Positions 2 through 21,430 of a stretch of 23,907 nt of DNA are shown in pieces. The notes under the pieces are model-generated. The model saw only the letters and a program-made list of their open reading frames with translations. It was not told where the DNA came from and searched no databases. The DNA comes from an uncultured virus (IMG/VR IMGVR_UViG_3300033149_003774) (Duplodnaviria; Heunggongvirae; Uroviricota; Caudoviricetes). Positions within the stretch are counted from its first letter, which is position 1. Each line of letters begins with the position of its first letter. The stretch is from IMG/VR virus record IMGVR_UViG_3300033149_003774. The stretch is one strand, 5' to 3'. A program made the translations under genes and the position numbers.

Positions 2-115
2 GAGTTTTTTGCTAGTTATGGATGGGATTGTTTTGTTATCTGGGGTAAAGATATGTCGTCAGTAGAGAAGAGAAAAATTCTTCTTCAGCGTCTTTTGGAA
101 TGGTTTTCTAAGTAA
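2..115 (+). CDS. 3' end of a Vsr/DUF559-like (PD-(D/E)XK) endonuclease, truncated by the window edge
   Basis: Frame 2 reads EFFASYGWDCFVIWGKDMSSVEKRKILLQRLLEWFSK*. The 'xxxGWxxxvIWxxd' pattern resembles the Vsr/DUF559 C-terminus. Not in the ORF track. Confidence 0.45.
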   Translation, partial: EFFASYGWDCFVIWGKDMSSVEKRKILLQRLLEWFSK

Positions 116-127
116 TCTTTTTGTATA

Positions 128-142
128 CCAAAACCTTTATAT
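128..142 (+). promoter_or_regulatory. Archaeal BRE-TATA promoter of the eS30 gene
   Basis: CCAAAACC-TTTATAT; the TATA starts at 136, 29 nt before ATG 165, which suggests a leaderless transcript. Confidence 0.6.
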
Positions 143-164
143 CCACCCCTTTTTTATATTATAT

Positions 165-368
165 ATGAGAAAAATGTCATCTAGTGGTAAACGTGCTGGA
201 CGCGGTTCACATGGAAGTCTCACAAAAGCCGGAAGGGTTCGTAGTACAACACCTCTAGTTCCACCTCAACCACATAGACCGCATCTTCACCCTCGTCTTG
301 CCAATCGTCGCAAATATGTTCATAGAATTTTAAATCCACGATCTCGCAAACCTAGGCGGCGTCGTTAG
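165..368 (+). CDS. rps30e: Small-subunit ribosomal protein eS30 (S30e)
   Basis: SHGSLTKAGRVRSTTP...PRLANRRKYVHRI matches the archaeal/eukaryotic eS30 signature (HGSLxKAGKVRxQTP...PRxxNRxxYxxR). 67 aa, very basic, with its own promoter and a T-tract after the stop. Confidence 0.93.
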   Translation: MRKMSSSGKRAGRGSHGSLTKAGRVRSTTPLVPPQPHRPHLHPRLANRRKYVHRILNPRSRKPRRRR

Positions 369-418
369 TTTTTGTAGAAACAACACAAGATTTATTTGTG
401 ATACTATCTATATGATAA

Positions 419-1201
419 GTGATCTTAATGCCGATTCTAACAGACGGAAGTTTGTACATTGACTACAAGAGAATAGCAGTTACCGATACGGAGCAAAGCT
501 ATACAATTGGAACCCAATCTGGTACACCGTTTGGTTCCGAGAGGATACGTTTTTTGGCTGATGAGGATTGCTATGTCAGATTTAATGAACCCACAGCTCT
601 GCAAATCCTTATCAAGGGAAAGGACATCTGGGAGTTTGAAAAAAGAGTTACAAAGATATATGTTGTGCGGGTTTCAGCGAATGGAAACTTGGAAGTGTGG
701 GCGGAGGGGGATATCCCATCTGCGATCAAGGGGAGATATCGAGCAGTACTAGAGAGATTGGTTTTGTTGGTGGGTAATTCTCTTAACGAAGCTGACTACG
801 ATGAGTATTATGTTACTGGGGACTATACACAACTGCCTACGAACCTGAGCAAGATGCCCTATGTAACGGTAAGAATTAATCCAGTTTTAATAGAGGATGA
901 AACATATGGAAGGCGTCTTCCAAGTGTAGGAAGCATGGCAACACATTATTTCACTTTATATGTTTACGAAACGAGCAATACAGTTGCTAGTGAAAATAAG
1001 AATAGAGATGCACACATCTGTGCAAGAACAATAATGGACTTTTTACGTGGAAAAGATCAAGATTCGACAGAAGGAGAAACTTATGGAATATATAGAATAT
1101 ATGATATTGGTGCAAGAGAATCAGAACCAGAGGGATTAAGGGGGATAAGTAGAATGATTGTTACTGGTGCAATGTGGGTGAAGAGGTTGGATTCACCATG
1201 A
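419..1201 (+). CDS. Two-domain virion protein: N-terminal ~90-aa beta-rich domain (paralog of 19262..19543) fused to a tail-terminator-like domain
   Basis: The N-domain aligns without gaps to 19262..19543. The C-domain has 'PYVTV...FTLYVY...IMDFL...S-R-x-x-V-x-G-x-x-x-V', the pattern of lambda gpU/SPP1 gp17-like tail completion proteins. Start may be ATG 428. Confidence 0.5.
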   Translation: MILMPILTDGSLYIDYKRIAVTDTEQSYTIGTQSGTPFGSERIRFLADEDCYVRFNEPTALQILIKGKDIWEFEKRVTKIYVVRVSANGNLEVWAEGDIPSAIKGRYRAVLERLVLLVGNSLNEADYDEYYVTGDYTQLPTNLSKMPYVTVRINPVLIEDETYGRRLPSVGSMATHYFTLYVYETSNTVASENKNRDAHICARTIMDFLRGKDQDSTEGETYGIYRIYDIGARESEPEGLRGISRMIVTGAMWVKRLDSP

Positions 1202-1680
1202 GTGATCCTAATGGAGATCCAAAGGGCAAGTTTGAGTCCGTGAAGAATAGATTGAATGATTATGTTACAGCAGCCATCGGTGGTCATGTTAGTAATGATT
1301 GGAGAATCAACATAAAAGAGCTCGGCACATTTCCCATTAGTACATTAAGATTTGGTGTGGTTTCTTTACTTAATGAAAATTATGGTGGTTTAACACCAGA
1401 AAGTGGTTGTTGGGCAGAATACGAGTTCAGTATATTTATTCAAGATAAAGAGTATAGCGATCAATTGGATACGGTTTTAAAACACTATAGTGTAATGGAT
1501 GATGCATCAGATGTGGTAGATTATTTAATTGGAAAAAGCGGAGACAGCACCGAAATTTCTTCTTATGGAATATATGAAATAGGTGAACTTAGAATTGAAT
1601 ATAATCAATTTAGAAGGGGCGGTAGGAACGTCGGTCGTGCAATTGTGAGGGGAAAGATTCGGTCTAAGTGGCTCGACTGA
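1198..1680 (+). CDS. Tail-terminator/tail-completion-like protein, paralog of the upstream C-domain
   Basis: ATG 1198 overlaps the upstream TGA (ATGA). Shares 'ExYG', 'DFL/DYLxGKxxDSTExxxYGIYxI' and 'RxIVxG..KxLD' with 419..1201. Confidence 0.5.
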   Translation: MSDPNGDPKGKFESVKNRLNDYVTAAIGGHVSNDWRINIKELGTFPISTLRFGVVSLLNENYGGLTPESGCWAEYEFSIFIQDKEYSDQLDTVLKHYSVMDDASDVVDYLIGKSGDSTEISSYGIYEIGELRIEYNQFRRGGRNVGRAIVRGKIRSKWLD

Positions 1681-1707: not shown

Positions 1708-2046
1708 ATGCAATCTATTATTCGGTTCAAATTGGCTGAAACAGAAAGAGTTGATGTCGAGGAGATAATCTCCGAAATAAACAATATGGACACGACGAAG
1801 ATGGATCGGCTTGGCATACTGACGAGTTTGGTGAAATTGACACAAATAATAAATAAAATTTCGGGCGTGTGGTTGCTCTTCTATGGTCTACCTAACATTT
1901 CAAGTGTTTCCAGAGAAGTGCTTGAGGAGTTTTTGAATTTTCAAAAAGATATATCCATCGGCATCATAAAAAACGGTCTCAAGTTTCAGAAAACCTTGCT
2001 CGAAAAACAACCGCAAAAAGATTCAGTTGGTGTTGGTGTAGTTTGA
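1708..2046 (+). CDS. DUF2153-like helical protein
   Basis: 'DRL...W....P....SREVLEE' spacing recalls the archaeal DUF2153 family (DRL...W..DP...PREMLEE). Confidence 0.4.
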   Translation: MQSIIRFKLAETERVDVEEIISEINNMDTTKMDRLGILTSLVKLTQIINKISGVWLLFYGLPNISSVSREVLEEFLNFQKDISIGIIKNGLKFQKTLLEKQPQKDSVGVGVV

Positions 2047-3317
2047 AAACAAAGCTAATGGTATGTTCCGATGTTATTTATGCTGGAACTGGTTTTTCTG
2101 AGGAATTGAGAAACATTCTCTTCAGGTTGGTTCAGACGGGAGAATATGAGGTATATTGGATCGGACTTCAACACGTTGGGTTTGATGTGGATGTCCCAGA
2201 TATGATGTTTCCAGATCTAAGGCAGATTGGGGCATCTATACGAATGGTTAGTGGTATGGGTCCGACAGAGCTGTATGGTGTTTCTGGTTTTAAAAGGTGT
2301 TTTGATAGAATTGCTCCCGATTTGTTTATGATGATGGGAGATCCCAAACATTTTGTTCCTTATGTAAAATTAAAGAAAAAAATGTATTTTCCACTTATTC
2401 TTTATACTACTTTGGATGGATTGCCAATTCCATTCACTTGGAAAAAAACGTTTTCTGGTTCAAATGTGAATCTTGCGATGACAGAATGGGCAATGTTGGA
2501 ATTTATGAAGGCAAAGATTCCTATGGGCGGTTATATTCATCATGGAGTTAATTGGCAGTGGTTTACGACAAATGATGTTGAAAAACAACGACTACGACGG
2601 CATTTTGGCATTAATGAAGAAACAACTTTGTTTATAAATTGGGATGTTAACCAATTTAGAAAAAGACTTGATGCATTACTACGATGTTGGAGGGATTTCA
2701 AACCAGAATCAAAGAATGCAAAACTATTTTTACATACTGATTCTTCCTGTTTTCTTGGGTTTAATTTGGAGAATTTAATGGAACAATATAATATTCCACG
2801 AGAGACGGTTTTGCTTCCAGAGGACGTATATGGAAGGAGAAAATATTTTGGTCAGGGAGAACCAATAGACTTTCACAGGAAGATGTGCGCTTTAGGTGAT
2901 GTGTATGTTTCAACGACGGGGGGAGAAGGGTTTGGTAAGACAGGACTTGAAGCTATGAGTCTTGGAATGCCCGTGATAATTACTGATTATTCTGCTTGTT
3001 CCGAGGTGTGTGAAAAGGGTTCAATTCTCGTTCCAACATATGAGGGACGGGCTGGAAGATACAGACTCCATGATAAGGTGAAGCAGGTAGAGATGGGAAT
3101 AGTGAATGAAGAAAAATTTGTGGAAGCTATGTTAAGATTGTATGATAATCCAGAGGAGAGAAAGGAGTTGGGTATGAGGGCTAGGGAGTGGTCAAAAACA
3201 TTTGATTATGATAGCCAAATAGTTCCAGCATGGATTGATGTTCTAAATAATATAGATCCGAATGTCATCTTTGCTTCAGAGGTTTTATCTTCTAAATCAA
3301 AGGAGCGAGTAATATAA
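2043..3317 (+). CDS. GT-B glycosyltransferase, GT4-like (#1)
   Basis: N-terminal 'SD....TGFS', then 'IHHGVN', 'RKRLD' and 'GEGFGKTGLEAMSLGMPVI' (E-x7-E motif). Confidence 0.9.
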   Translation: MKTKLMVCSDVIYAGTGFSEELRNILFRLVQTGEYEVYWIGLQHVGFDVDVPDMMFPDLRQIGASIRMVSGMGPTELYGVSGFKRCFDRIAPDLFMMMGDPKHFVPYVKLKKKMYFPLILYTTLDGLPIPFTWKKTFSGSNVNLAMTEWAMLEFMKAKIPMGGYIHHGVNWQWFTTNDVEKQRLRRHFGINEETTLFINWDVNQFRKRLDALLRCWRDFKPESKNAKLFLHTDSSCFLGFNLENLMEQYNIPRETVLLPEDVYGRRKYFGQGEPIDFHRKMCALGDVYVSTTGGEGFGKTGLEAMSLGMPVIITDYSACSEVCEKGSILVPTYEGRAGRYRLHDKVKQVEMGIVNEEKFVEAMLRLYDNPEERKELGMRAREWSKTFDYDSQIVPAWIDVLNNIDPNVIFASEVLSSKSKERVI

Positions 3318-3981: not shown

Positions 3982-5028
3982 ATGAAGAAGAAAAAAACAG
4001 ATAGAGAAATGTGGTTAGAAACCCTAAAAGTCAAGGATGACATAGTTGATTCCATAGGGAAGAGTTCAAATTATTTTAAGAAAATTCAAAAATTAAGAAC
4101 ACGATCAATATCAAATCCTCTGAGTGATGGGAAAGTTCCAGTAAAAAGAATTCTGACTGGAACGGCTTTAGATGAAATTCTCAGTTTTAATGGTGGGATA
4201 GAGGTTGGCAGTACTGTGGAGTTTTATGGTCCTTTTGCGGCGGCAAAAACACAGATATGTGAAACACTCGTTACAGAGGCTGAAGGATTAATCATATATA
4301 TAGATTCGGAGCGAACCTTCAGGAAGGAAAGGGTGAAGGGCATAGCGGTAGCGAGGGGAAAGGACGTAGAAGACATCAACAAAAGACTCTTATTGTATCA
4401 ACCAGAAGACTGGATGGAACAAGAAGCAATAACAATGAATCTTCCTGAGTTTGACTCTGAGGGAAATTTTATAGATGTCGGTCTGGTTATAATTGACTCA
4501 TTGATGAAGCATTGGGCGGATGCGCCAGAGTTCTTTGGAAGGGAAAAATTGACTACGCGACAACAGATGGTTCGGGCTGAACTTGCCAGACTCGTGAGAT
4601 ATGTGAGGAGACATAGTGCAGTTTTGGTCTATACCAACCAGATCTATGATAAACCAATAGATACTAGATACGCATCCCCAGAACAAAAGATCGGCGCGCG
4701 GGGCGGACGCTCCCTAGAACACATCGCAGACTACAGAATTCTTCTTATCAAGAAACGGGGGAATGTGAGGGTAGCTCGCTTGGTGGATAGTCCAGATATC
4801 CCCCTACTCGAAGTTCCATTTGTATTGGATGAGAGAGGAATATCGGATATTCCAGATCCAGCAGAAAGAGCAAAAGCCCTAGAATTGACCGAGAGTTACA
4901 GAGAGAAGTTTCTTTCGGGAAGAATAGGTTCAAAACCTGCTGGAAAGAAGTATATTGAAAAAGCAAAGGAAATCGGGTTAATAGTTGAAGAAGATGAGGA
5001 AGTAGAAGAGGTAATAGGTGAAGAATAG
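3982..5028 (+). CDS. radA: RadA/Rad51-family recombinase homolog
   Basis: 'TG..LDEIL..GGIEVG..VEFYG....KTQ', 'YIDSERTFR', Walker B 'LVIIDSL', 'TNQ', 'GGRSLEH' and 'RVARLVDSP' are collinear with archaeal RadA. Walker A is GPFAAAKT. Confidence 0.88.
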   Translation: MKKKKTDREMWLETLKVKDDIVDSIGKSSNYFKKIQKLRTRSISNPLSDGKVPVKRILTGTALDEILSFNGGIEVGSTVEFYGPFAAAKTQICETLVTEAEGLIIYIDSERTFRKERVKGIAVARGKDVEDINKRLLLYQPEDWMEQEAITMNLPEFDSEGNFIDVGLVIIDSLMKHWADAPEFFGREKLTTRQQMVRAELARLVRYVRRHSAVLVYTNQIYDKPIDTRYASPEQKIGARGGRSLEHIADYRILLIKKRGNVRVARLVDSPDIPLLEVPFVLDERGISDIPDPAERAKALELTESYREKFLSGRIGSKPAGKKYIEKAKEIGLIVEEDEEVEEVIGEE

Positions 5029-5856: not shown

Positions 5857-6200
5857 AACTGGAAGACGCGATAAAGTTACAGGAGCGACTGTTCAAAAAG
5901 AGGATGGAGATAAGAAGAAAGAAGGGACATGATTATGCAAATTTGGAGGACTGTTTAATCAACTTTAAAACCGTAGCAACAATTGCCCATCTTTTTGGTG
6001 TTGATGTTACAAAACCATACGGTGTGGCATTCTTTTATAAGATACTCAAATTACAGCGCGAGGCGAACCTTCTTTTTTCTAACAAAACACCAGAAAACGA
6101 ATCTCTTCTTGATACTCTATTGGATCTGAGTAACTATAATGATTTGGAATTGGAGTGCCTCGTAGAAAGTGGAATAATAGAGGTTGAAAACGAAGAATGA
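5853..6200 (+). CDS. DUF1599/Nmad1-like all-alpha NTP-pyrophosphatase-fold protein (nucleotide-modification associated)
   Basis: 'KGHDY...NF...K..R...NESLLDTLLDLSNY' matches the KxxDY / ESxxDTLxDLxNY pattern. ATGA-coupled on both sides. Confidence 0.7.
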   Translation: MKLEDAIKLQERLFKKRMEIRRKKGHDYANLEDCLINFKTVATIAHLFGVDVTKPYGVAFFYKILKLQREANLLFSNKTPENESLLDTLLDLSNYNDLELECLVESGIIEVENEE

Positions 6201-7381
6201 AAACCATTGGAATATTCGGAGATATGTACACCGCCTCGACCGGCATGGCGGTAGTACTTAGAAATTTAGCTAATCAACTTTCAAAATGGTTCCAAGTTAT
6301 TTATTTTGGAAGATTCGGTCAGGAGAAGGAATTTTCCAAAAATCCCTTCGTTCCTCTCACGGAGTCATTTTCCTATGTAACCACGGAGGGGGGAGTGTGG
6401 GATAGAGAACTCGTCGTTAGAATACTGAAACATTATAAAGAAGTGGACATATGTTTCACGGAAGATGATTGGTTTAGCAGTTATGGTATAGTTCAAGCAT
6501 GTAATTTTTGGGATAAACCAATCCACCTACTCACTCCAATAGACTCTCTTCCAATACCAAGGATGGCATTTACCGATGTTTTTTTTCTGTGTGATAAACT
6601 GTATGTTCCTAATGGAAGTTGGGAAATGTTTAATGGGATGAAGAGAGTGGGCGGTGAGAGTGCCGGTGCGGCGAGGAGAAGTGGTTCTCGCCTTAAGAGC
6701 GTTTTCCTTCCACATGGGGTAGATTTTAATGCCTTTCGTCCAAAGAAAGTTCAACGCTCCGATAAATTTACCTTTCTCTGGACTGGAAGAATAGAAGAGA
6801 GAAAAAATCCACGTGCCTTCGTTTTGGCGGCGGAAAAAATACATAATAAGATGGATGCAGATTTTTTTATGCGTTCCGATTGGAATACACCATATGCACG
6901 TCGCCTTTTTCAATATATAGAAAGAAAAAATCTCCCATTCATATTGGATCAAATGAGTGATATTCCCCATAACGGAATGGCGGATGTATATAATATGGGG
7001 GATGTTTTTGTTTGCACAAGCAAAGCGGGCGGGTTTGAGCTCTCCATAATTGAAAGTATGGCTTGCGGTCTCACCACTATAGTTACAGATTGGACGTTTA
7101 TGAATGAAAATATCATAAATGGAAGAAGTGGTTTTCTAGTTCCCGTGGAAAGTTTTTGTCATCCTCCTGCTCCCGATCCGAGAGAAAAAAGAACTTCAGA
7201 TATTGCTCGTGATAGAATATGGGGTAATATTTCTATTGAGGGGCTAGCGAATAAAATGTTGTGGATGTACAACAATCAAGGAAAGGTGAAGGCTATGGGA
7301 AGATGGGCTTCAGCATATGCGCGGCAGAGATATGATTGGGGGAGAATAGGAGAAAAGTTGAAGAAAGAACTGATGGAGTGA
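6197..7381 (+). CDS. GT-B glycosyltransferase, GT4-like (#2)
   Basis: 'STGMA', 'LPHGVD', 'GRIEERKN', 'AGGFELSIIESMACG' and C-terminal 'YDW'. Confidence 0.9.
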   Translation: MKTIGIFGDMYTASTGMAVVLRNLANQLSKWFQVIYFGRFGQEKEFSKNPFVPLTESFSYVTTEGGVWDRELVVRILKHYKEVDICFTEDDWFSSYGIVQACNFWDKPIHLLTPIDSLPIPRMAFTDVFFLCDKLYVPNGSWEMFNGMKRVGGESAGAARRSGSRLKSVFLPHGVDFNAFRPKKVQRSDKFTFLWTGRIEERKNPRAFVLAAEKIHNKMDADFFMRSDWNTPYARRLFQYIERKNLPFILDQMSDIPHNGMADVYNMGDVFVCTSKAGGFELSIIESMACGLTTIVTDWTFMNENIINGRSGFLVPVESFCHPPAPDPREKRTSDIARDRIWGNISIEGLANKMLWMYNNQGKVKAMGRWASAYARQRYDWGRIGEKLKKELME

Positions 7382-8097: not shown

Positions 8098-8553
8098 ATG
8101 AAAAAACTACATATTAAACCAGAGGATATGAAAAATCTTACAAAGTGGCCTGTTGGTTATGGAAGGAACTTTAGGGTTATGGTTCCATATCCAGAGAATC
8201 CGAGAGAGGGGGTTTGTGATGCGTGCGGAAAATCGGTTTCAAAGGGGGAAATTTCGGTTACGGCACTTCATCATTGGATTTATGCATATAAGCGTAAAAC
8301 AGTTTCTAGGAATCCGCTTCTTGTATTGGATAATTGCTCCGAATTTTGTTTTGGTTGTCATGGTGTGGCTGATGCTCTACGGACAATCTGCACGCTAACG
8401 GAAAAGCGGTTATGGATTGTGGTGAGGGTTGCTCTCCTTATGCCAGAGAAAATGAAGGAAAAATTGGATTGGATAGCAAGGGCGTGGTTGAAGGCAAGAG
8501 AGCGGGATAAAACGCGGAAGGGGAAGATTACAGCCTTTATCAGAAAGACTTAA
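8098..8553 (+). CDS. HNH-like zinc-binding endonuclease
   Basis: CDAC...LHHW...DNCSEFCFGCH is the CxxC/HH/N/CxxCH layout of HNH nucleases. Confidence 0.55.
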   Translation: MKKLHIKPEDMKNLTKWPVGYGRNFRVMVPYPENPREGVCDACGKSVSKGEISVTALHHWIYAYKRKTVSRNPLLVLDNCSEFCFGCHGVADALRTICTLTEKRLWIVVRVALLMPEKMKEKLDWIARAWLKARERDKTRKGKITAFIRKT

Positions 8554-8577: not shown

Positions 8578-8847
8578 GTGGTTGGTTTGGAAGAAAAAAA
8601 CATTACTGACTGGGAGGTGGTATATCAACCCAGTTTCTCACCGAGATTCAATCTCACAGTAGACTATCCTCAATATATAACTTGTCCCTTCTGTAATTCC
8701 ATATTGTCTTCTGAAAATAATTATGTGTTTTGTCCATATTGTGGTTCTCGATTGAAGGAGGCAAAAAGCGATGATATTTCAAAAAAACTGAATCGCATAA
8801 TATCGATGCTCGAAGATATAATTTGTAGAATGGATGAATTGGAGTAG
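8578..8847 (+). CDS. Zinc-ribbon protein with a C-terminal coiled coil
   Basis: CPFC...FCPYCG followed by an amphipathic helix. Confidence 0.6.
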   Translation: MVGLEEKNITDWEVVYQPSFSPRFNLTVDYPQYITCPFCNSILSSENNYVFCPYCGSRLKEAKSDDISKKLNRIISMLEDIICRMDELE

Positions 8848-8854
8848 AGTGAAT

Positions 8855-10033
8855 ATGACGAGATATTGCTATTGGGGTCCTGTTCCTAATGAGCGAGATG
8901 GTGGTGCAATTGTAAATTATTATCTTCTAAAAAAATTTAATGAATTGAGACCAATGGATGAATATTACGGTGTACCAAAAGTTCCAGAGGAGCTTGATCC
9001 ATCTTGGCTTCCTTGGGTTAACTATTTTACCGTGAGAAACTCCGTGGAGTTCATCCCTTCTCTGATGTTGAGGAAGGATATACCTCTTCTTAATATTTTT
9101 CATATTGGACGTGGAGATATAGAAAGAGTATTGGAACCAGTCCACAACATAGGTGGAAAAATAGTCTGTCATCAGACAATACATTGGGACGACGATGATA
9201 TATTGAAATCAAATAGACTTATCGAGCTAGATAAGATTGTTGCGCCAACTAGATATGCATATGACATATTCAAAGAAAAGGCGCGTCTTCCACCAGAGAA
9301 ACTGGCTATCATACCTCATGCCGTCGATACGAATAGATTTTATAAACATGAAACCATTCTTGAACGCCGTTGGAACATAGATAAAAAACGACAGAGGGTA
9401 ATCCTTTTTACTGGAAGACTTAGTTATTGGAAGGGAGTTCATCAGATCATCCCAATAATACGTCCCCTCGTTAGGGCTTTTGATTGTGTATTTGTAATAC
9501 GTGGTTCCGCATTTGAGGGCGTCGAAGAATCAAAAAAACTTGCTTATATATTCAATAGACTTTCTGTGAATAATCCAAATATAATATTCATCTCTGAGTG
9601 GCAACCTCCAGCCTTTATGGAAGAGTTATACGCAATGACGGATGTTCTGATCGCGAACTCGGCACATGAGGGATTCAACCTTCCGTTAATCGAGTCTCAA
9701 GCTGTAGGTGCCATTCCAATTACTACTGCAATCCCCAATCACGTTGAGATTTTGGGACGAACTGGTTATTGTGGAATATTGGTGGAACCAAGAGTGAGGG
9801 TTGGGGAGGTAAACGATGGAAGAGAACTGATGGTAGCTGAATCAGATCAACTCTATGGTGCCGTCAAATGGGTTCTTGAAAACCCAGCGGAGTGCGCGGT
9901 TATGGGACAACATGGAATTGAAAACGTGAAGAAAAGATTTGATCTTTCAAAGATAGCCCCGTCTTGGCTTCAATTGTATGATTCTCTTCTCTCAGATGAT
10001 ATGAATGAAAATATGCGTAAAGGCATATTATGA
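8855..10033 (+). CDS. GT-B glycosyltransferase, GT4-like (#3)
   Basis: 'DGGA', 'IPHAVD', 'GRLSYWKG', 'HEGFNLPLIESQAVG'. Likely start ATG 8855. Confidence 0.9.
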   Translation: MTRYCYWGPVPNERDGGAIVNYYLLKKFNELRPMDEYYGVPKVPEELDPSWLPWVNYFTVRNSVEFIPSLMLRKDIPLLNIFHIGRGDIERVLEPVHNIGGKIVCHQTIHWDDDDILKSNRLIELDKIVAPTRYAYDIFKEKARLPPEKLAIIPHAVDTNRFYKHETILERRWNIDKKRQRVILFTGRLSYWKGVHQIIPIIRPLVRAFDCVFVIRGSAFEGVEESKKLAYIFNRLSVNNPNIIFISEWQPPAFMEELYAMTDVLIANSAHEGFNLPLIESQAVGAIPITTAIPNHVEILGRTGYCGILVEPRVRVGEVNDGRELMVAESDQLYGAVKWVLENPAECAVMGQHGIENVKKRFDLSKIAPSWLQLYDSLLSDDMNENMRKGIL

Positions 10034-12585: not shown

Positions 12586-15147
12586 TTGATTCCTTACTTT
12601 CTGATCAGGAGAGAAAGACCGCGCTTTGGTTATCTGATCGATGCCATCTATGACGGAAAGCGCGGAGTTATTCGTCTTAGTTTTTTAGATCCAGTTTCTC
12701 AAACAATATTTTTTTGGTATGATAATACGGGACACCATCCCTACCTTCTCACCTCAGCTTCAAAAGAAGAGATAGAGGAATTGATTGGAGAACGAGGAGA
12801 CTATTTAGGTTCAAACGATGTAACAAAATACGATTCAATAAAAGATGAAAATGTTATTCTGAGGAAGGTATATGCTTCTAATCCACTCGCAATAGGTGGA
12901 GATTTTATTAGGAAGGGTAATTTTAGAAGCGTGCTTTCAAAAGCCGGTCATAATGTATGGGAAGCACGAAAACAATATTTTCAATGTTTTTGTTTTGACA
13001 TGAGGTTGGAGATGGGGATGCCATATCTTGTTTCAGAAAAAAATATCACTCCATTCAAAGATGTCGTTGTAGAAAAAAGGATCGAGAAAACTCTGAGAGA
13101 GTTAAATGAAAAACATAGGGTTCCAGATACGGAGGAACTTCGTTTCTGGCTTAAAATTTTTGAATATCCTTTTTTTAAACCCAAATTCATCACCATCGAC
13201 ATAGAGGTTCAACCGGAAGATTCGGATAGGATGCCCAACCCACAAATTGCTAAACAGCCAATAATAGCAGTTTCTTTTGTGGATTCGGAAGACAAGAAAG
13301 AAGTTTTTCTATTAAAGAGAAGTGGGACAAAATCAGGAAATGAAGAGTTAAAAAACGTGTATTTTTTTGACAAAGAGGAAGAATTGATCTCGACAACATT
13401 TAAAAAAATAGATAGTTTTCCATTCGTGGTTACATTTAATGGGGATAACTTCGATTTACTCTATCTCAGTAATCGTGCAGAATGCCTTGGGTTGCGAAAA
13501 AAATGGAATCCGATTATAGTTCAGAAAAAACAATGCAAGTTGAAACGTGGCATTCATATTGATCTGTATCATTTTTTCAAGATCAGAGCAATACAGATAT
13601 ACTCTTTTAAGTCAGCATACAAGGATTTCAAACTCGATAGTATTTCAAAAGCTCTGCTTAAAAAATCAAAGATCATACATAAAAAACCAATTGAACTCCT
13701 TTCATATTCAGAACTTAAAAATTATTGTCTTCGCGACGCAGAACTCACACAACAACTTTTGACATTTAATGATAATACGGTATTCAACCTCATTCTTTCA
13801 CTTACAAGAATGTCAAATCTGCCAATTGGTGAGTTAATTCGGAGAAATCTTTCAGATTGGATCAGGAGTACTCTATTTTATTTTCTTACAAAAAAGAACA
13901 TTCTCATTCCATCACGCGACCAACTTAGAATGAAGGGGGGTGCCCAAACAAAACCAAAGATAAAAGGAAAAAAATATGAGGGGGCGATTGTGAGAAAACC
14001 AAACCCAGGAGTATTCTTTGATGTGAAGGTCTTGGATTTTGCCTCCCTCTATCCTTCTGAAATTAAACTAAGAAACATTGGTTTTAGTACCGTAGATTGT
14101 CCACATGAGGATTGTAAGGTAAATGTTGTGCCTTACACGAAGCATTGGATATGTATGAAAAATAGAGCAATCGAGGCAGATGCAATCGGCAGTCTGAGGG
14201 ATATTCGTGTTTTCTTATATAAACCGAGAGCAAAAGATCCCCTTCTTCCAAAAGAATTACGTGTTTTTTATGGTGCGCTGGAACAATCAATAAAAGTTTT
14301 TCTTAATGGTCATTATGGAATTTTTGGTTATGAAAAATTTGCACTTTATACGCCAGGTGTTGCCGAAACGACTACTGCCTATGCGAGAAAGCATATGACA
14401 ATCCTAATGAAAAAGAGCGAGGAAGCTGGGATAGTTGTTCTTGGAGGAGATACTGATAGCTGTTTTCTTTATAAGCCAAGTGAAGAACAGATTAGGAAAT
14501 TAAAAGAAGAAATAATGGAGGAACTTGGACTCGATCTTGGCATCGATAAAATATATAGATATGCTGTTTTTAGTCATAGGAAGAAGAATTATCTCGGTGT
14601 GTTTGAGGATGGAACAGTAGATATAAAGGGACTTACCGGTAAAAAGAGTAATATTCCAGAAATAATAAAAAAACCATTTTTTCGAGCAATTAAAATTCTG
14701 AGTTCTGTTAAAAATATGGAAGAGTTTACGGAAGCCAAAAAAAGTATACTGGAATTGGAGATTGAAACATACAATAAAATTAAGAATAGAAAGTGGGAAG
14801 ATGTATCTGAATTGGCATTTCATACGAGACTCAGCAGAGATCCAGACTCATATGAAACAAATCCACAACACGTGAAGGCGGCGAAGATGCTTCGAGAACT
14901 GGGACACGAAGTAAGAGGTGGAGATCTCATTCATTATATCAAGGCGACAAACGAAGATGGCGTTATGCCTGTTTTTGATACGGACTCGGAGATGGTGGAT
15001 ACTGATGCTTATATTGAGCAGTTGCGTTCCGTGTTTGACCAAGTAACTGAAGTATTGGGAATTGATTTTGAAAAGGATGTTCTTGGCAAAAAAACTATGG
15101 ATGATTATATTTATGGCGACACAAACATTTCTCAATTTTTATCCTAG
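12586..15147 (+). CDS. polB1: Family B DNA polymerase of the archaeal PolB1 clade
   Basis: N-terminal 'YDG...DP.SQ.I..WYDNTGH.PY' typical of PolB1. Exo motifs DIEV, FNGDNFD, YCLRDAE; polymerase motifs DFASLYPS, KVFLNGHYG, GGDTDS, KKNY. PIP-like C-terminus. Confidence 0.95.
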   Translation: MIPYFLIRRERPRFGYLIDAIYDGKRGVIRLSFLDPVSQTIFFWYDNTGHHPYLLTSASKEEIEELIGERGDYLGSNDVTKYDSIKDENVILRKVYASNPLAIGGDFIRKGNFRSVLSKAGHNVWEARKQYFQCFCFDMRLEMGMPYLVSEKNITPFKDVVVEKRIEKTLRELNEKHRVPDTEELRFWLKIFEYPFFKPKFITIDIEVQPEDSDRMPNPQIAKQPIIAVSFVDSEDKKEVFLLKRSGTKSGNEELKNVYFFDKEEELISTTFKKIDSFPFVVTFNGDNFDLLYLSNRAECLGLRKKWNPIIVQKKQCKLKRGIHIDLYHFFKIRAIQIYSFKSAYKDFKLDSISKALLKKSKIIHKKPIELLSYSELKNYCLRDAELTQQLLTFNDNTVFNLILSLTRMSNLPIGELIRRNLSDWIRSTLFYFLTKKNILIPSRDQLRMKGGAQTKPKIKGKKYEGAIVRKPNPGVFFDVKVLDFASLYPSEIKLRNIGFSTVDCPHEDCKVNVVPYTKHWICMKNRAIEADAIGSLRDIRVFLYKPRAKDPLLPKELRVFYGALEQSIKVFLNGHYGIFGYEKFALYTPGVAETTTAYARKHMTILMKKSEEAGIVVLGGDTDSCFLYKPSEEQIRKLKEEIMEELGLDLGIDKIYRYAVFSHRKKNYLGVFEDGTVDIKGLTGKKSNIPEIIKKPFFRAIKILSSVKNMEEFTEAKKSILELEIETYNKIKNRKWEDVSELAFHTRLSRDPDSYETNPQHVKAAKMLRELGHEVRGGDLIHYIKATNEDGVMPVFDTDSEMVDTDAYIEQLRSVFDQVTEVLGIDFEKDVLGKKTMDDYIYGDTNISQFLS

Positions 15148-15215: not shown

Positions 15216-15230
15216 ATAAGAGATATAAAT
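15216..15230 (+). promoter_or_regulatory. TATA promoter of the portal-like gene
   Basis: ATAAGAGA-TATAAAT; the spacing favours ATG 15259 over the ORF-track start 15229. Confidence 0.45.
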
Positions 15231-15258
15231 GTCAGTTGTAATATATTATTTGTTTGAT

Positions 15259-17160
15259 ATGGTCGAAAAAGAAGAGAAAACAGTAGAAAAAACATTTATG
15301 TTTCCTAAAGACTTTGCTAGTGCTTTAGAGAAGGAGGCGCGCGATGCAAAGAAAACCGAGGAAGAAGTACTAAATGATTGGTTTTCAGAAAATGGTTTTT
15401 GGGTTCTTGGTATGAATGCAGAAGAATCAATAATAAGTCTCAGGTATGTCGATAAAGGAGGTGTTGGTTCTCTTGATGAAGTGGGAGAAGATGGAACCGA
15501 ATCAGAAAAAAACATTAAGATATACAGAGAACTACGGGATACGTTTCCCCCTGTTACTGCTGGCATAGATTATCTGAAGAGTTTTGTTTCTGGGAGCGGT
15601 TTTACCGTTGGCGTGGATGACGGTGATGATCCACATCAAAAAGAAGTTCAGCAGATTATTAATGATTTTAATAGAAATATCTTTATGGATGAAGTAACGC
15701 AGGGATTGGATTCGATCATAGATATCGCCCTTGAACCCGCATTCGTGGATGGTTGTACTGCATGTGAGGTCGTGTACAAGAAATTTAAGGAGGCAGGTAG
15801 TTTCAATTTCCATGATTATGTGGAATCCTCTTCAACAGATAAAGATGGAAAAACGATCTACAAACCGAGGGAACTTACTGAAGAAGATTGGAAGGAACTT
15901 GGCGGAATAGTTCAACTAAAGATAATAAACAACGCATACTCCCGTCTCAAGCCATACAGAGACAAGAGAACGTATCAAATCTTATATTGGACTGTGGACG
16001 AAAATGAAACGGAAAGCTGGAACAGATACCATAAAGATGATCAGAGAGAAGTCATCAAGTTGCTTCCGTGGCAAATATTCTGGTTCAGTCCAAATAGGCG
16101 TGGAACGAGGCTTAAAGGTCCCTCTATGATCAAACCCGTAGCTACTACTGCTCTTCTACTGAAAAAAATACTTAACGATGTTGGTATCAGTTTTGATAAA
16201 TGGGCTGATAGAAAATACTTCTTCATTCTTGGGAGCGACAAAACGGGGAGAAGTTGGGCACCCCCACACATCAGAAACTTCTTGGCAAACGTGAAGAAAA
16301 TGTCAGAAAAAGGTGGAGTGGGCATTCCGGTTCCACCTGGCTTTGATGTGAAGGACATAGGTGGGGAGGTGTATGATGGAGGACAAATACTTGACAGGCT
16401 AATTAGTATGATAGTCGGTGGAATGAAATACCCCCGTACCTTTTTGGAACAGGGAAAAACTCAGGAGGGGGATAAGGCTTGGTTGGCGTGGCTTGTAACA
16501 TATGGCAGAATTCAGACGCAGTTACGGCGTTGCGTGGAACATCAACTCTGGAAACGCCATCTGAATTGCATTTATGGGTTTTCATATGAGACGACAAAGA
16601 GAGGTCCAGAGCCGGAGGGAGGACGACCCAGAAAACCAGTATATGTACCAAAAATGCAGTGGAGGAGTGAAGGGAAGTGGCACATGGAGACAAAACTAAA
16701 AATGCTTTATGGTGGTTTGAACGTAGCCAATCCCATAGGACCAGAAACGAAGTTGGAGATAGAGACGGATATTGCAAAAACACTAGGCTATAGTGAAATG
16801 AATCTTGATGTGGCTAGAGAGTTGCTACGAATAGACAGGGAAACTGAGAAAGTAAACAGGGAAATCGAATTGTTGAATAAAAAAATGGAGCTTGAACTTT
16901 TACAGAAGGCGTATAAGGAAAAGGCATATATGGATGAGGAGCCACGCCTGAAGTTTGTTCAACCATCCATTACGGAGCAACCCACGAAGAGTAAACCACC
17001 GCCAGAAAAATTGGCTGAGGGGGAGGAGGAAAAAAAACCATCCCCCGTGGAGAAAAGATTGGCTGGCGGAGTCAGCAAACGAAAGAAAGAAACTGGAACA
17101 AAGTCGAAGAAGGGTGTGGCACGCCCCCTCGGTTCTACCAGAAAACCAAAGAATAAATAG
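15259..17160 (+). CDS. Portal protein (Caudoviricetes-type)
   Basis: Portal-like succession of motifs: 'YREL....V.AGIDYLK..V.G.GF.V', 'DG.TACEVV', 'L.P.QI', 'GPSMIKP', 'VPPGFDVK.I', 'GMKYPR.FL'. Followed by a coiled coil and a disordered basic tail. Confidence 0.65.
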   Translation: MVEKEEKTVEKTFMFPKDFASALEKEARDAKKTEEEVLNDWFSENGFWVLGMNAEESIISLRYVDKGGVGSLDEVGEDGTESEKNIKIYRELRDTFPPVTAGIDYLKSFVSGSGFTVGVDDGDDPHQKEVQQIINDFNRNIFMDEVTQGLDSIIDIALEPAFVDGCTACEVVYKKFKEAGSFNFHDYVESSSTDKDGKTIYKPRELTEEDWKELGGIVQLKIINNAYSRLKPYRDKRTYQILYWTVDENETESWNRYHKDDQREVIKLLPWQIFWFSPNRRGTRLKGPSMIKPVATTALLLKKILNDVGISFDKWADRKYFFILGSDKTGRSWAPPHIRNFLANVKKMSEKGGVGIPVPPGFDVKDIGGEVYDGGQILDRLISMIVGGMKYPRTFLEQGKTQEGDKAWLAWLVTYGRIQTQLRRCVEHQLWKRHLNCIYGFSYETTKRGPEPEGGRPRKPVYVPKMQWRSEGKWHMETKLKMLYGGLNVANPIGPETKLEIETDIAKTLGYSEMNLDVARELLRIDRETEKVNREIELLNKKMELELLQKAYKEKAYMDEEPRLKFVQPSITEQPTKSKPPPEKLAEGEEEKKPSPVEKRLAGGVSKRKKETGTKSKKGVARPLGSTRKPKNK

Positions 17161-18888: not shown

Positions 18889-18961
18889 GGGTGAGTGGTG
18901 TAACGAGTTAGCATATGGGTCTGTGAAACCCAAGGATCGAGTGCAAGTCTCGACTCGACCC
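18889..18961 (+). tRNA. tRNA-His(GUG), non-canonical
   Basis: Cloverleaf folded by hand: acceptor GGGTGAG/CTCGACC with C73, D-stem GTGT/GCAT, anticodon arm TGGGT-CTGTGAA-ACCCA (GTG at 18923-18925), T-arm TCGAG-TGCAAGT-CTCGA. No encoded CCA. Confidence 0.85.
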
Positions 18962-19261: not shown

Positions 19262-19543
19262 ATGGGATATCTTTATAATGATTATAAGAGATTGGCTGTT
19301 ACAGATACAGAACAAAGCTATGTGATAGGAACAGAATTAGGCACTACGTTCAGAGCGGAGAAGATATGCTTCCAAGCTGATGAGGACTGTTATGTTAGGT
19401 TCAACGGCGCATCCGCCGTTCAGGTTCTCATTCCAAAGGAGGACATCTGGGAGTTCGAGAAGAAGACAGTACGAATATATGTTGTGAGAGTTTCTGCAAA
19501 TGGTAACTTGGATATATGGGCGGAGGGAGATATACCGACTTAG
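19262..19543 (+). CDS. Stand-alone ~90-aa beta-rich protein, paralog of the N-domain of 419..1201; probable virion accessory protein
   Basis: Ungapped alignment to the N-terminus of 419..1201; directly precedes the fibre gene; TTATAA box at 19226-19231. Confidence 0.7.
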   Translation: MGYLYNDYKRLAVTDTEQSYVIGTELGTTFRAEKICFQADEDCYVRFNGASAVQVLIPKEDIWEFEKKTVRIYVVRVSANGNLDIWAEGDIPT

Positions 19544-19582: not shown

Positions 19583-21430
19583 ATGCCACGGGGCTATGTT
19601 TCATGGAAAACACTTCAGAACCTAAGCATCACTACGCTAACTACCAGTGGAGCCATTACCTGTGGTGGAGATCTAACAGTTCAAGGCAATTTCACCGAGG
19701 AGTTGGACGAATCTCTCCTTGGCGATCTTACTCTGGGAACAGCTACACAAGCAGGCGGAGATATCACAGTTTATAAAGATGGCTCTGGAAACAAAGCCTT
19801 CTTCCTAGATGCTTCAGCGGGTCAGCTTCAGCTTCCGACGACGGGTTCTGGTGGCGGGATTCTGATCGGCGGTGATACTCAATGGTATCGAAGTGCTGCT
19901 AATGTCTTACGTACACCAGATGTTGTCGTGACCGAAGATCAATTCCAAAGTTATCCATCAGATGCGGCAGATACCGCTTATCTAGCGAGTGTTTTGGGAG
20001 AAAGCCCAGCTCGATTCCGAATTCGTGCGGATGGAAAACTAGAATGGGGACCAGGAAACGCAGCACGTGATATTGAGCTTTATCGTTCTGCTGCAAACAC
20101 GCTGAGCCTCGGCTCGGGCGACAGTTTCGGGGCGACGACGTTCAGCGACGCTATAACAATTAGTCATGGGACACCTAGAGTGTATCTAACGGATACTGAT
20201 GAAACTTCCCCCGCTGGGAAATTCGCTATGGAATCACAGAACGATTATTGGAACTTGCTGGGTCGCAAATCTGATGACTCTGGTTGGATTCCTATTATTG
20301 TTGCTGAGCGTATTGAAGACGGCGGTCTCGTGGAGTTCAAGGGAGCGAGTGGGATAAAACTCACTGGCAAACTAAATATGAACAGTCAGGACATTAATGA
20401 TGTAGGAAACTATCTCTATGGTGTTGATGGCGCGGCACTGAGAATTCGACCGGAGAGAACATCAAGTGCTACTGGGCAGGATTTGATACTTCAGACCTAC
20501 GATGTGGATGCGACGAGCTGGATTGATGTTCTCACAGTAAAAGGAGAGCCTACAGGAACCGGGGTTGATCCTTATGTGTTGCTAGGTGGAAATCTGGATA
20601 TGTCCAGTGGTTCCTACGACATTCTCATCCCAGATAATCAAGCAACGGCACTAGAAATAAAGGAAGGAACTAATGCTTACATAACTTTTAATAGCACCGA
20701 TGGAAGCGAGCGGGTTACTATAAATAAGAACATGACCGCCGCATTAAACTTAACAGTTTCGAGTAGCTTTTACTTAGACGGACAAGCCTTATGGGGACTG
20801 CAAGCAGATGACAACAGCTTAACCATAAAAGGAAGAACGGCGTCAGCCGCACAGACAGACACCATAGTAATTCAAACAAGTAACGCATCTCATGGAGTGA
20901 ATTTCTCCGATAGGATTCAGATCGGCGGAGGAGCGGCAACTGTTGATATTGACATCTTAAATGCAAATCTCGACCTCGGCGGGAACTTATTGAAGACGAC
21001 GACCTATTATCTAAACGAAGTTACTGGCGGCTTTGGGATACAGAAGATCTCTGATGATAGTTATGTTACACTTAAGACCGGCGATTTAAATATTCAGAAT
21101 GCCGAGAACGCCATAAAGTTCGAAAAAAATGCGGCGAAGATCAAGGCGACGAATACGGATGGTTATTACGTTACTATATGGGCAAGAGATACAGGCGTCG
21201 GTCTTGTTGAGGTTGCAAGATTCGCAGGTGACACTGATCCATTCTTCAGCATGGGCGGAAGTCAGGAGTTCAAGTTCACAAATGGCGGATTGATGGGTTT
21301 ATTTGGCGCAACTCCTGTAGTGCAACAGACACATATAGCTGACGCGGATGGAACACTGGCTGACATTACAACAAAGTTTAATTCGTTGCTCGACAAACTA
21401 GAAGCATATGGATTGTTAGCAACTTCGTAG
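19583..21430 (+). CDS. Virion fibre protein (tail or head fibre)
   Basis: G/T/S/D/A-rich beta sequence with the repeat DTQWYRSAANVL / DIELYRSAANTL. The C-terminal 'GLFGATPV...FNSLLDKLEAYGLLA' resembles the ends of phage head-fibre proteins. Confidence 0.75.
   Translation: MPRGYVSWKTLQNLSITTLTTSGAITCGGDLTVQGNFTEELDESLLGDLTLGTATQAGGDITVYKDGSGNKAFFLDASAGQLQLPTTGSGGGILIGGDTQWYRSAANVLRTPDVVVTEDQFQSYPSDAADTAYLASVLGESPARFRIRADGKLEWGPGNAARDIELYRSAANTLSLGSGDSFGATTFSDAITISHGTPRVYLTDTDETSPAGKFAMESQNDYWNLLGRKSDDSGWIPIIVAERIEDGGLVEFKGASGIKLTGKLNMNSQDINDVGNYLYGVDGAALRIRPERTSSATGQDLILQTYDVDATSWIDVLTVKGEPTGTGVDPYVLLGGNLDMSSGSYDILIPDNQATALEIKEGTNAYITFNSTDGSERVTINKNMTAALNLTVSSSFYLDGQALWGLQADDNSLTIKGRTASAAQTDTIVIQTSNASHGVNFSDRIQIGGGAATVDIDILNANLDLGGNLLKTTTYYLNEVTGGFGIQKISDDSYVTLKTGDLNIQNAENAIKFEKNAAKIKATNTDGYYVTIWARDTGVGLVEVARFAGDTDPFFSMGGSQEFKFTNGGLMGLFGATPVVQQTHIADADGTLADITTKFNSLLDKLEAYGLLATS

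Follow-up and report, generated by a model that had tools for sequence, protein, structure and literature searches.

A homologue of ribosomal protein eS30 with a basic N-terminal extension in a tailed archaeal virus

Introduction

Ribosomal proteins encoded by viruses are known mostly from phages (bS21 and bL12), and the literature searched reports few from archaeal viruses (L21e, bL19 and a proviral set); statements attributed here to published work refer to the available parts of the cited sources. The ribosomal proteins that viruses carry tend to be small and exchangeable, and phage-encoded bS21 and bL12 become incorporated into the ribosomes of E. coli (Mizuno et al. 2019, PMC6375957). L21e (eL21) of the haloarchaeal Hafunaviridae has been called the first ribosomal protein of archaeal viruses (PMC8651126), bL19 is encoded by the Bathyarchaeia virus Kunpengvirus (PMC10541130), and S6e, L15, L15e and L30 occur in proviruses (PMC13573593). 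The sole eS30 domain that the available text of PMC6375957 lists among cultivated viruses is that of fau (FUBI-eS30) in the retrovirus FBR-MuSV, an inversely oriented animal cDNA whose action is by way of antisense RNA and which is not a virus-adapted ribosomal protein. Here we describe a gene for an eS30 homologue in 23,907 nucleotides (nt) of DNA from an uncultured tailed virus (IMG/VR record IMGVR_UViG_3300033149_003774), a stretch referred to at its full length as the window. This gene, intact and with a conserved N-terminal head of viral type, takes its place as a variant among the known virus-encoded ribosomal proteins. An archaeal virus with eS30 was reported nowhere in the available parts of the literature searched, in agreement with an earlier note on this DNA, made from its letters, to which none was known; the available portion of a preprint on viruses of Asgard archaea (bioRxiv 10.1101/2021.07.29.453957) makes no mention of S30.

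In cells, eS30 is one of three small-subunit proteins common to TACK archaea, Asgard archaea and eukaryotes (PMC11698992), a distribution that the earlier note had given correctly. According to the same source, archaeal eS30 is situated in the entry channel for mRNA and touches helix h16, and the Thermococcales, which are without eS30, have a longer h16; the N-terminus of the Saccharolobus protein (Pro2) packs on h44 at the A site, and eukaryotic eS30 has an N-terminal tail that helps to steady the codon-anticodon pair and contacts A-site tRNA, eEF2 and eIF1A.

Set beside cellular archaeal eS30 (PF04758, NF006817), the viral copy is of the same family and size class and conserves the pattern HGSLTKAG[KR]VR..TP...PR..NR.KY. 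It differs in carrying a basic stretch of 14 additional N-terminal residues, where cellular copies start with MP(G/S/T) or MG, in scoring under the equivalog cut-off, in lying outside the housekeeping neighbourhood and in being encoded by a virus. As with phage bS21 and bL12, this is a single gene for a small peripheral ribosomal protein in a tailed virus, its relatives are under purifying selection, and it is presumed to act by replacing the host protein. Unlike the phage proteins, eS30 is of archaeal/eukaryotic type and sits at the mRNA entry/decoding side, its incorporation is here presumed, and the viral copies bear a conserved added N-terminal tail. L21e and bL19 are likewise genes of archaeal tailed viruses, but both encode large-subunit proteins, and eS30, unlike either, recurs across several unrelated types of viral contig.

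Identity and expression of the eS30 gene

The gene and the elements immediately around it are the following.

165..368, + strand: eS30 gene encoding P0001 (67 aa), with a PF04758 match and archaeal eS30 as the best PDB chains
165..206, + strand: 14-residue basic N-terminal extension MRKMSSSGKRAGRG, aligning with the extensions of relatives
131..142, + strand: BRE/TATA-like promoter box AAACCTTTATAT (BRE, B recognition element), 34 nt before the ATG
369..373, + strand: five consecutive T immediately behind the stop codon, possibly serving as an archaeal terminator

The open reading frame (ORF) starts with ATG at 165 and stops with TAG at 366-368, giving the product P0001, MRKMSSSGKRAGRGSHGSLTKAGRVRSTTPLVPPQPHRPHLHPRLANRRKYVHRILNPRSRKPRRRR; no other ORF of at least 50 aa overlaps 128-374 on either strand. 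The stand-alone eS30 gene proposed in the earlier note is borne out by this frame and by its match to Pfam PF04758 (Ribosomal_S30; 34.8 bits, E 2e-8, the cut-off being 27 bits), in which residues 16-64 align with positions 3-50 of the 58 in the model. A search of the PDB with P0001 returned 62 distinct chains at E<=10, the best 60 of which are labelled eS30, S30 or FUBI/FAU-eS30, bar a few depositor label variants. The top two are both archaeal eS30, 9fhl_e (E 3.5e-9, aligned over 51 residues), which we take to be the Saccharolobus solfataricus chain, and 9e71_Ba (1.1e-8). P0001 has an isoelectric point (pI) of 12.0, with 21 K+R and neither D nor E. It contains the core motif H-G-S-x-x-K-A-G-K/R-V-R, T-P and P-R..N-R, and the invariant or near-invariant columns of the family alignment (A1) are H16, G17, K21, G23, V25, R26, T29, P30 and P43. 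Its closest relative, P0002, is 76% identical, but across half its length only. Judged by its sequence, P0001 is a real yet divergent eS30, and ORF 165-368 is almost certainly an intact, virus-encoded homologue of this ribosomal protein.

A phage collection gave no match for eS30 or for the portal protein of the window, and matched its DNA polymerase at about 22-25% identity only; IMG/VR yielded nothing when scanned with eS30 or the portal as single sequences, in contrast to profile scans, which did recover relatives; and an exact 38-nt stretch of the eS30 gene had no match in the IMG/VR and metagenome contigs searched.

The motif AAANNTTTAWAT occurs seven times in the window, always on the + (coding) strand, where 0.52 copies are expected and none of 100 shuffles reaches seven. 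Six of these copies precede an ORF start by 18-42 nt, and the seventh (10944) falls within an ORF. Because the eS30 box AAACCTTTATAT at 131-142 is one of the seven, the BRE/TATA-like element is common to eS30 and other genes of the window, and the assignment to eS30 of a promoter-like box of its own, made in the earlier note, holds. An archaeal TATA box usually lies about 26 nt before the transcript start; with the TATA element at 136-142, this spacing would place the start near 165, and the mRNA would then be leaderless. The eS30 mRNA is thus probably leaderless and read from the gene's own promoter of viral type. The downstream T-tract described earlier is also present, as the five T that follow the stop codon. 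A scan of the window for sigma-70 promoters and hairpin terminators was uninformative for archaea.

The N-terminal extension

The short archaeal N-terminus (Met-Pro...) is absent from P0001, in which 14 residues precede HGS, and no in-frame start lies between the ATG at 174 and the HGS motif. The extension ends in a conserved G-R-G-S junction, followed by HGS. Among 208 distinct eS30 sequences collected, 110 are N-extended and 98 short. The extensions have a median length of 20 residues (range 9-78) and a median net charge of +4, and the motif G-[RKQ]-G-[ST] stands directly before HG in 95 of the 110 distinct N-extended forms; the ...GKRAGRGSHG of P0001 fits it. The short forms start with MPGS, MPS or MPT in 74 of 98 cases. 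The motif held in common by these relatives confirms that the basic extension pointed out in the earlier note is real and, as far as comparison of sequences goes, the 14-residue head is a trait of a large N-extended eS30 family and not peculiar to P0001. Two other traits listed there do not set P0001 apart within the family: the Pro/His-rich middle, described as unusual, aligns with a variable linker that is likewise P/H-rich in some cellular copies (for example ...IDPMPHPPTNP... and ...VPARPHKNLTP...), and poly-Arg tails are carried by short eS30 copies too.

Other variations on the domain were seen. A linker insert of 15-20 residues separates the TP and PR..NR motifs in some copies of viral context, namely G007 (L106 1420-1719), L008, L076 and P0003, and a zinc ribbon is fused to some relatives, namely the intact 98-aa P0040 and the C-part of the G006 gene (G006 and G007 being viral loci described below). 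One candidate relative, P0004 (1327 aa, with 21 matched stretches), was rejected as a spurious repeat match on a P/H-rich stretch. Loki-type cellular eS30 was rejected as a long form, the Loki- and Hel-named copies measuring 56-58 aa and starting with MPGS or MSPGS; the Jord-named copy (68 aa) also starts with MPGS or MSPGS, and its surplus length is C-terminal.

A virus family with eS30

A scan of IMG/VR with a portal profile gave three loci which, together with the window, are treated here as a virus family. G001 (91,361 bp, with a 127-bp direct terminal repeat) and G007 (79,309 bp, with a 99-bp terminal repeat) are both 100% complete, G001 by CheckV; G006 is a 13.4-kb fragment that has the family B DNA polymerase (PolB), dCMP deaminase and portal in common with the window. 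All 33 ORFs taken as genes in the window lie on the + strand. Those that define its setting are listed here.

2..115, + strand: 3' end of an upstream ORF (37 codons plus stop), P0048, seen in translation and running off the window
428..1201, + strand: neck protein of 257 aa, directly downstream of eS30, with a C-domain (about residues 100-257) of tail-terminator fold
1198..1680, + strand: paralogue of the tail-terminator-fold domain, 160 aa, 29% identical to the C-domain of 428-1201 and aligning with G001 87081-87521
2043-3317, 6197-7381 and 8834-10033, + strand: three GT4 glycosyltransferases, kept in the window, G001 and G007 (35-46% identity)
3982..5028, + strand: RadA/Rad51-type recombinase (PF08423, E 2.3e-32), 39% identical to that of G001 and 36% to that of G007
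12586..15147, + strand: PolB (PF00136, PF03104; phrog_262, E 1.3e-43), 37-46% identical to that of G006
15229..17160, + strand: portal, the family marker (phrog_9232, E 2.6e-10; Pfam Portal_Mu weakly)

The portal is 40% identical over 627 aa to that of G001, 39% to that of G007 and 41% to that of G006. The protein of 428-1201 is recorded on an 85,907-bp contig, of which the window is therefore part, and the eS30 gene belongs to a tailed archaeal virus of approximately 86 kb. An AlphaFold model of this protein, made from a small alignment, has a C-domain with a predicted local distance difference test score (pLDDT) of 75-93 in most 10-residue blocks and dips to 50-64; the predicted template modelling score (pTM) is 0.62 overall, and the N-terminal 100 residues are poor. 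Foldseek found 30 PDB matches at E<=0.001, mainly neck and terminator proteins, the best being gpU of lambda, a tail terminator (8iyd_K; E 4.4e-5, target TM 0.64), and the weaker matches listed include the tail of Haloferax tailed virus 1 (E 4.4e-3); the best BFVD match is a "Tail terminator" (E 5.2e-7).

Synteny with the window around the ends of G001 takes in the terminator-fold protein, a glycosyltransferase (46% identity), RadA (39%) and a small zinc protein, and continues through a second glycosyltransferase (43%), a homologue of 8098-8553 (39%) and a third glycosyltransferase (35%) to, further on, the portal. G001 encodes a major head protein (Phage_capsid_4, 27.5 bits against a cut-off of 27; phrog_267, E 2.8e-11), a large terminase (phrog_2, E 1e-21) and tail proteins. 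The head protein of G001 is encoded two genes ahead of the homologue of the terminator-fold genes of the window, and the window probably starts, by this comparison, just after a head gene. The viral setting, free of host translation genes, that the earlier note described is supported by the portal, PolB, RadA, two neck proteins and synteny with the complete G001. The note was right about the tail-like flank, as the tail-terminator fold shows; its upstream endonuclease is a putative label given by resemblance, and the ORF at 2-115 has no Pfam match. Its call for terminase and capsid genes was answered in part: portal and tail-terminator fold are in the window, while the head protein and large terminase were found in the relative G001 only.

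An eS30-like gene is present in all four members found by portal similarity, one copy being broken in assembly, and eS30 is a hallmark of this virus family. The G001 gene lies about 1 kb before the portal, scores 48.2 bits against PF04758 and is 44% identical to P0001 over 54 residues. In G007, a 99-codon ORF in a position similar to that in G001 reads ...KSKGTHGSLSKAGRIR..., then a long linker insert, then ...HSCPIVANRHRYKK..., and its Pfam score of only 13.9 bits is attributable to this insert. An HMM (hidden Markov model) built from A1 gives it 33.8 bits (E 4.7e-9), the G007 copy being outside A1, whereas the scores of the window and G001 are partly circular, the sequence or a near-copy (P0034) being in A1. 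The G006 gene (L111 12433-12898, minus strand) breaks into two frames inside the HGSL/TKAGKVR motif; the first part, ...SSSKRRAGRGTHGSL, closely resembles the head of the window copy, and the second has TKAGKVR and a C-terminal zinc ribbon. The split may be an assembly error or real. The ribosomal protein eS26 (PF01283) was found in none of five related viral records.

Extended and short eS30 in other contigs

A profile scan of IMG/VR with eS30 gave 21 stretches, ten of which encode relatives (10 loci, 6 distinct proteins). PF04758 scored above its cut-off in all five IMG/VR records tested, of which IMG/VR classes one as having terminal repeats, two as proviruses and two as linear; the record of L007 (G003) encodes a large terminase (E 1e-37). 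Known families are sparse around six eS30 loci, and among the Pfam matches there (in 5/30, 13/31, 8/34, 3/34, 6/41 and 3/31 ORFs of L001, L006, L007, L008, L009 and L010, respectively), there is no second ribosomal protein. Leaving L006 aside, nothing links these IMG/VR loci to the window beyond a weak PolB match of L009, and eS30 therefore occurs in several unrelated types of virus. The screen of viral databases that the earlier note had called for yielded relatives. L009, with a short-headed eS30, also encodes a TATA-binding protein (13860-14381; PF00352, E 7.8e-27) and an anaerobic ribonucleotide reductase.

The extension recurs widely. A search of representative sequences gave 42 matches at E<=0.001, the spurious P0004 being one and many of the others being extended before HGS. 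A metagenome scan gave 377 relatives, and of the best 80, 32 have at least eight residues before HG and 48 have fewer (one cut by the contig end). The neighbourhoods of the two forms were compared. Around extended copies (15 loci, 113 ORFs), 96 ORFs from 14 loci were submitted, leaving out L042, which duplicates L001, and three eS30 ORFs; a Pfam match (E<=1e-4) was obtained for 16 of the 96 neighbours, none of them a housekeeping gene, and the matches include a phiEco32-type ligase, a DNA methylase, an integrase-like piece, Rad51 and DSPc. In the control set with short N-termini (13 loci, 97 ORFs; 68 submitted from 9 loci), 61 of 68 neighbours had a Pfam match, with ELP3, Nop5, fibrillarin and GatD/E recurrent and MCM, GINS and Cbf5 also present. 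N-extended eS30 is a large group in virus-like neighbourhoods. A cluster of ELP3-like radical SAM protein, Nop5 and fibrillarin, often with GatD/GatE, lies within the roughly 8 kb around the short cellular eS30 of L060, L087, L088, L095 and L078.

When 5.8 billion proteins were searched with a profile, 1663 of the 8000 candidates scored proved to be matches. The best 120 matches comprise 76 extended copies, on contigs of up to 103 kb and none of at least 110 kb, and 44 short ones, four of them on contigs of at least 110 kb and up to 301 kb; one extended copy from the metagenome scan (L042) lies on a contig of 162,755 bp. All nine source-named archaeal eS30 have short heads (Lokiarchaeota, Helarchaeota, Jordarchaeaceae, three Bathyarchaeota/ia, two Desulfurococcales and Crenarchaeota), and the sole organism-named extended copy is filed under a metagenome-assembled genome of Desulfobacterales, on a 1.7-kb contig.

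Selection and ancestry

In pairs of extended copies from virus-like contexts with a synonymous divergence (dS) below 1, the ratio of non-synonymous to synonymous divergence (dN/dS) is 0.03-0.28 (for example 0.03 for L063/L064, 0.08 for L067/L082, 0.10 for L054/L070 and 0.17 for L031/L039), and close pairs of N-extended relatives are under purifying selection. The pN/pS ratios of extension and core, summed by hand over eight pairs and resting on small counts, are as follows (counts given as changes/sites).

Extension: non-synonymous about 20/305, synonymous about 16/91, ratio about 0.37
Core: non-synonymous about 73/1077, synonymous about 113/316, ratio about 0.19

The extension seems to be constrained, less so than the core.

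A tree of the eS30 core was built by a "quick" method from 112 of 114 rows (two without the HG motif were dropped) and 56 columns, with the extensions cut off. It is largely unresolved, and the N-extended label changes 12 times on it against 37.9 in shuffles. The label is thus clustered, in a manner compatible with one or several origins; in the comparison with cellular eS30 envisaged in the earlier note, the extended copies tend to cluster, and the window copy finds no place. The core of P0001 is 50-59% identical to copies of Thermoprotei and Asgard type and about 40-49% to those of Bathyarchaeia, and no clear donor lineage emerges from this comparison. In the Atlas, the clusters nearest to eS30 have Nitrososphaerota and Promethearchaeota as their commonest phyla, and the cluster nearest to RadA is 98% viruses, followed by Nitrososphaerota, Nanobdellota and Promethearchaeota, these being leads only. 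Two bacterial loci from a scan of genome contigs with a narrow eS30 alignment were rejected as spurious.

Proposed action on the ribosome

[quoted passage not shown] P-R ... N-R-[RK]-K-Y, would be that of the cellular protein, and the 14-residue basic tail ending in G-R-G-S would stand in for the short cellular N-terminus (MP.. or MG..). Because the cellular N-terminus touches h44 at the A site, the viral tail would reach the decoding and aIF1A region, where it could alter initiation or decoding in favour of the virus. Entry of the viral protein into host ribosomes is likely, and we hold it moderately probable that it replaces host eS30 with its basic tail acting at the decoding/initiation region. 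The outcome may be an aid to the viral, apparently leaderless mRNAs, as the earlier note suggested for a remodelled host 30S subunit, or a shut-off of the host. A wider version, which we put forward tentatively and regard as possible rather than probable, is that N-extended eS30 represents a virus-adapted lineage spreading among unrelated archaeal tailed viruses, marked by [KR]-[KR]-[GA]-G-[RK]-G-[TS] before HGS, whose head reprograms initiation at the decoding centre/aIF1A site towards leaderless viral mRNAs. From the viral eS30 it would seem that archaeal viruses adjust the ribosome on its decoding side, and with its rebuilt N-terminus this protein is a natural variant for probing that tail in archaeal translation. 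As a corollary, eS30 could serve as a host-range marker for uncultured archaeal viruses, since only hosts with a ribosomal eS30 site could use it.

Several points weigh against replacement of the host protein as the explanation. That the host ribosome has an eS30 site is an assumption. The score of P0001 against NCBIfam NF006817 (the S30e equivalog; E 5.9e-15, 54.8 bits) lies under the cut-off of 75 bits, which is the threshold for naming a protein of the same function, so that the HMM check advised in the earlier note was passed with Pfam and missed with the equivalog. Selection was measured on relatives, the window gene being without a close enough one, and in the tree the window copy sits on a long branch (0.99) with no supported neighbour. 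The position of eS30 varies among the four family members, before the neck genes in the window, between epimerase and portal in G001 and G007, and before dCMP deaminase, PolB and portal in G006, which is as compatible with mobility or recurrent capture as with an ancient core gene. The window shows 164 nt upstream of the eS30 ATG, and the upstream ORF there has no recognisable family: P0048 finds no Pfam family even at E<=10 and no match in the related viral genomes. Finally, the GC skew is -0.18 to -0.20 over the eS30 gene (101-400), near zero over 301-600 and +0.12 to +0.52 from 501 onwards; P/H/R-rich composition or foreign origin may be the cause of the negative values.

Other uses of the protein can be envisaged. 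In one, which we think unlikely, it would shut off the host: the core would bind the eS30 site and the basic head would plug the A site, the aIF1A site or the mRNA entry channel, making the protein an inhibitor of host translation or a selective filter and not a working ribosomal protein. Such a role would suit the conserved binding core, the median net charge of +4 of the extensions and the fact that the extension replaces an N-terminus that contacts h44 in Saccharolobus (PMC11698992), but the virus relies on the same ribosomes for its own mRNAs, and the extension is under less constraint than the core. Exaptation as a polycationic nucleic-acid binder, for example in capsid DNA condensation or in protection of viral nucleic acid, is quite unlikely in our judgement. 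The extreme charge of P0001 (pI 12.0, 21 K+R, no acidic residue), the place of the window copy in the virion module, immediately ahead of the neck proteins, and the zinc-ribbon fusions of P0040 and of the C-part of the G006 gene would suit such a binder. DNA condensation and similar uses are nonetheless rendered less likely because the conserved residues (H16, G17, K21, G23, V25, R26, T29, P30 and P43) are those of cellular eS30, and in G001 and G007 the gene, which lies upstream of the portal, has genes of sugar/nucleotide metabolism and not head genes around it.

It is very unlikely that the gene is a functionless passenger, captured from a host by chance. Viruses do sample host DNA (PMC6375957), and both the varying position of the gene within the family and the odd GC skew over it would be in keeping with such an event; on the other hand, the frame is intact and has a virus-type promoter box, the relatives are under purifying selection, and an eS30-like gene is found in four of four members whose portals share only about 40% identity. 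We regard as most improbable of all that the gene is not viral, being a host chromosomal gene beside a provirus, the product of a chimeric assembly, or the eS30 that an undersampled archaeal lineage normally has, on contigs misfiled as viral. Such an error could be suspected from the distance of eS30 to the window edge (164 nt) and from the classing of two other eS30-bearing records as proviruses by IMG/VR. Yet the next genes downstream encode virion neck proteins, whose G001 homologues follow the major head protein, and the promoter box is the virus's own. The eS30 of G001 and G007 is internal to complete genomes with terminal repeats, the source-named archaeal copies are short-headed without exception (9/9), and among the best 120 matches the contigs of at least 110 kb hold no extended copy against four of the 44 short ones.

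Further features of the viral genomes

Besides the genes listed above, the window encodes a dCMP deaminase, DUF5131, a nucleoside deoxyribosyltransferase-like protein and ThyX. G001 also encodes an epimerase, PIG-L and polysaccharide deacetylases, and together with the conserved GT4 genes these sugar genes suggest a family-wide glycan-modifying module. The PolB homologue of G006 (L111 5688-9134, minus strand) aligns with the window PolB as two parts that lie about 1 kb apart; this may reflect an insertion, for example of an intein, or a gene that is split. The sole Rfam match in the window is a tRNA-His (anticodon GTG) at 18889-18961, between the portal region and a gene for a fibre-like protein. 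The N-terminal part of the neck protein of 428-1201, about 95 residues (428-720), is duplicated as a 93-aa ORF at 19262-19543, just before this 615-aa fibre-like protein (19583-21430). The two copies are 70-84% identical in DNA and 71% in protein, and the domain that they share folds poorly.

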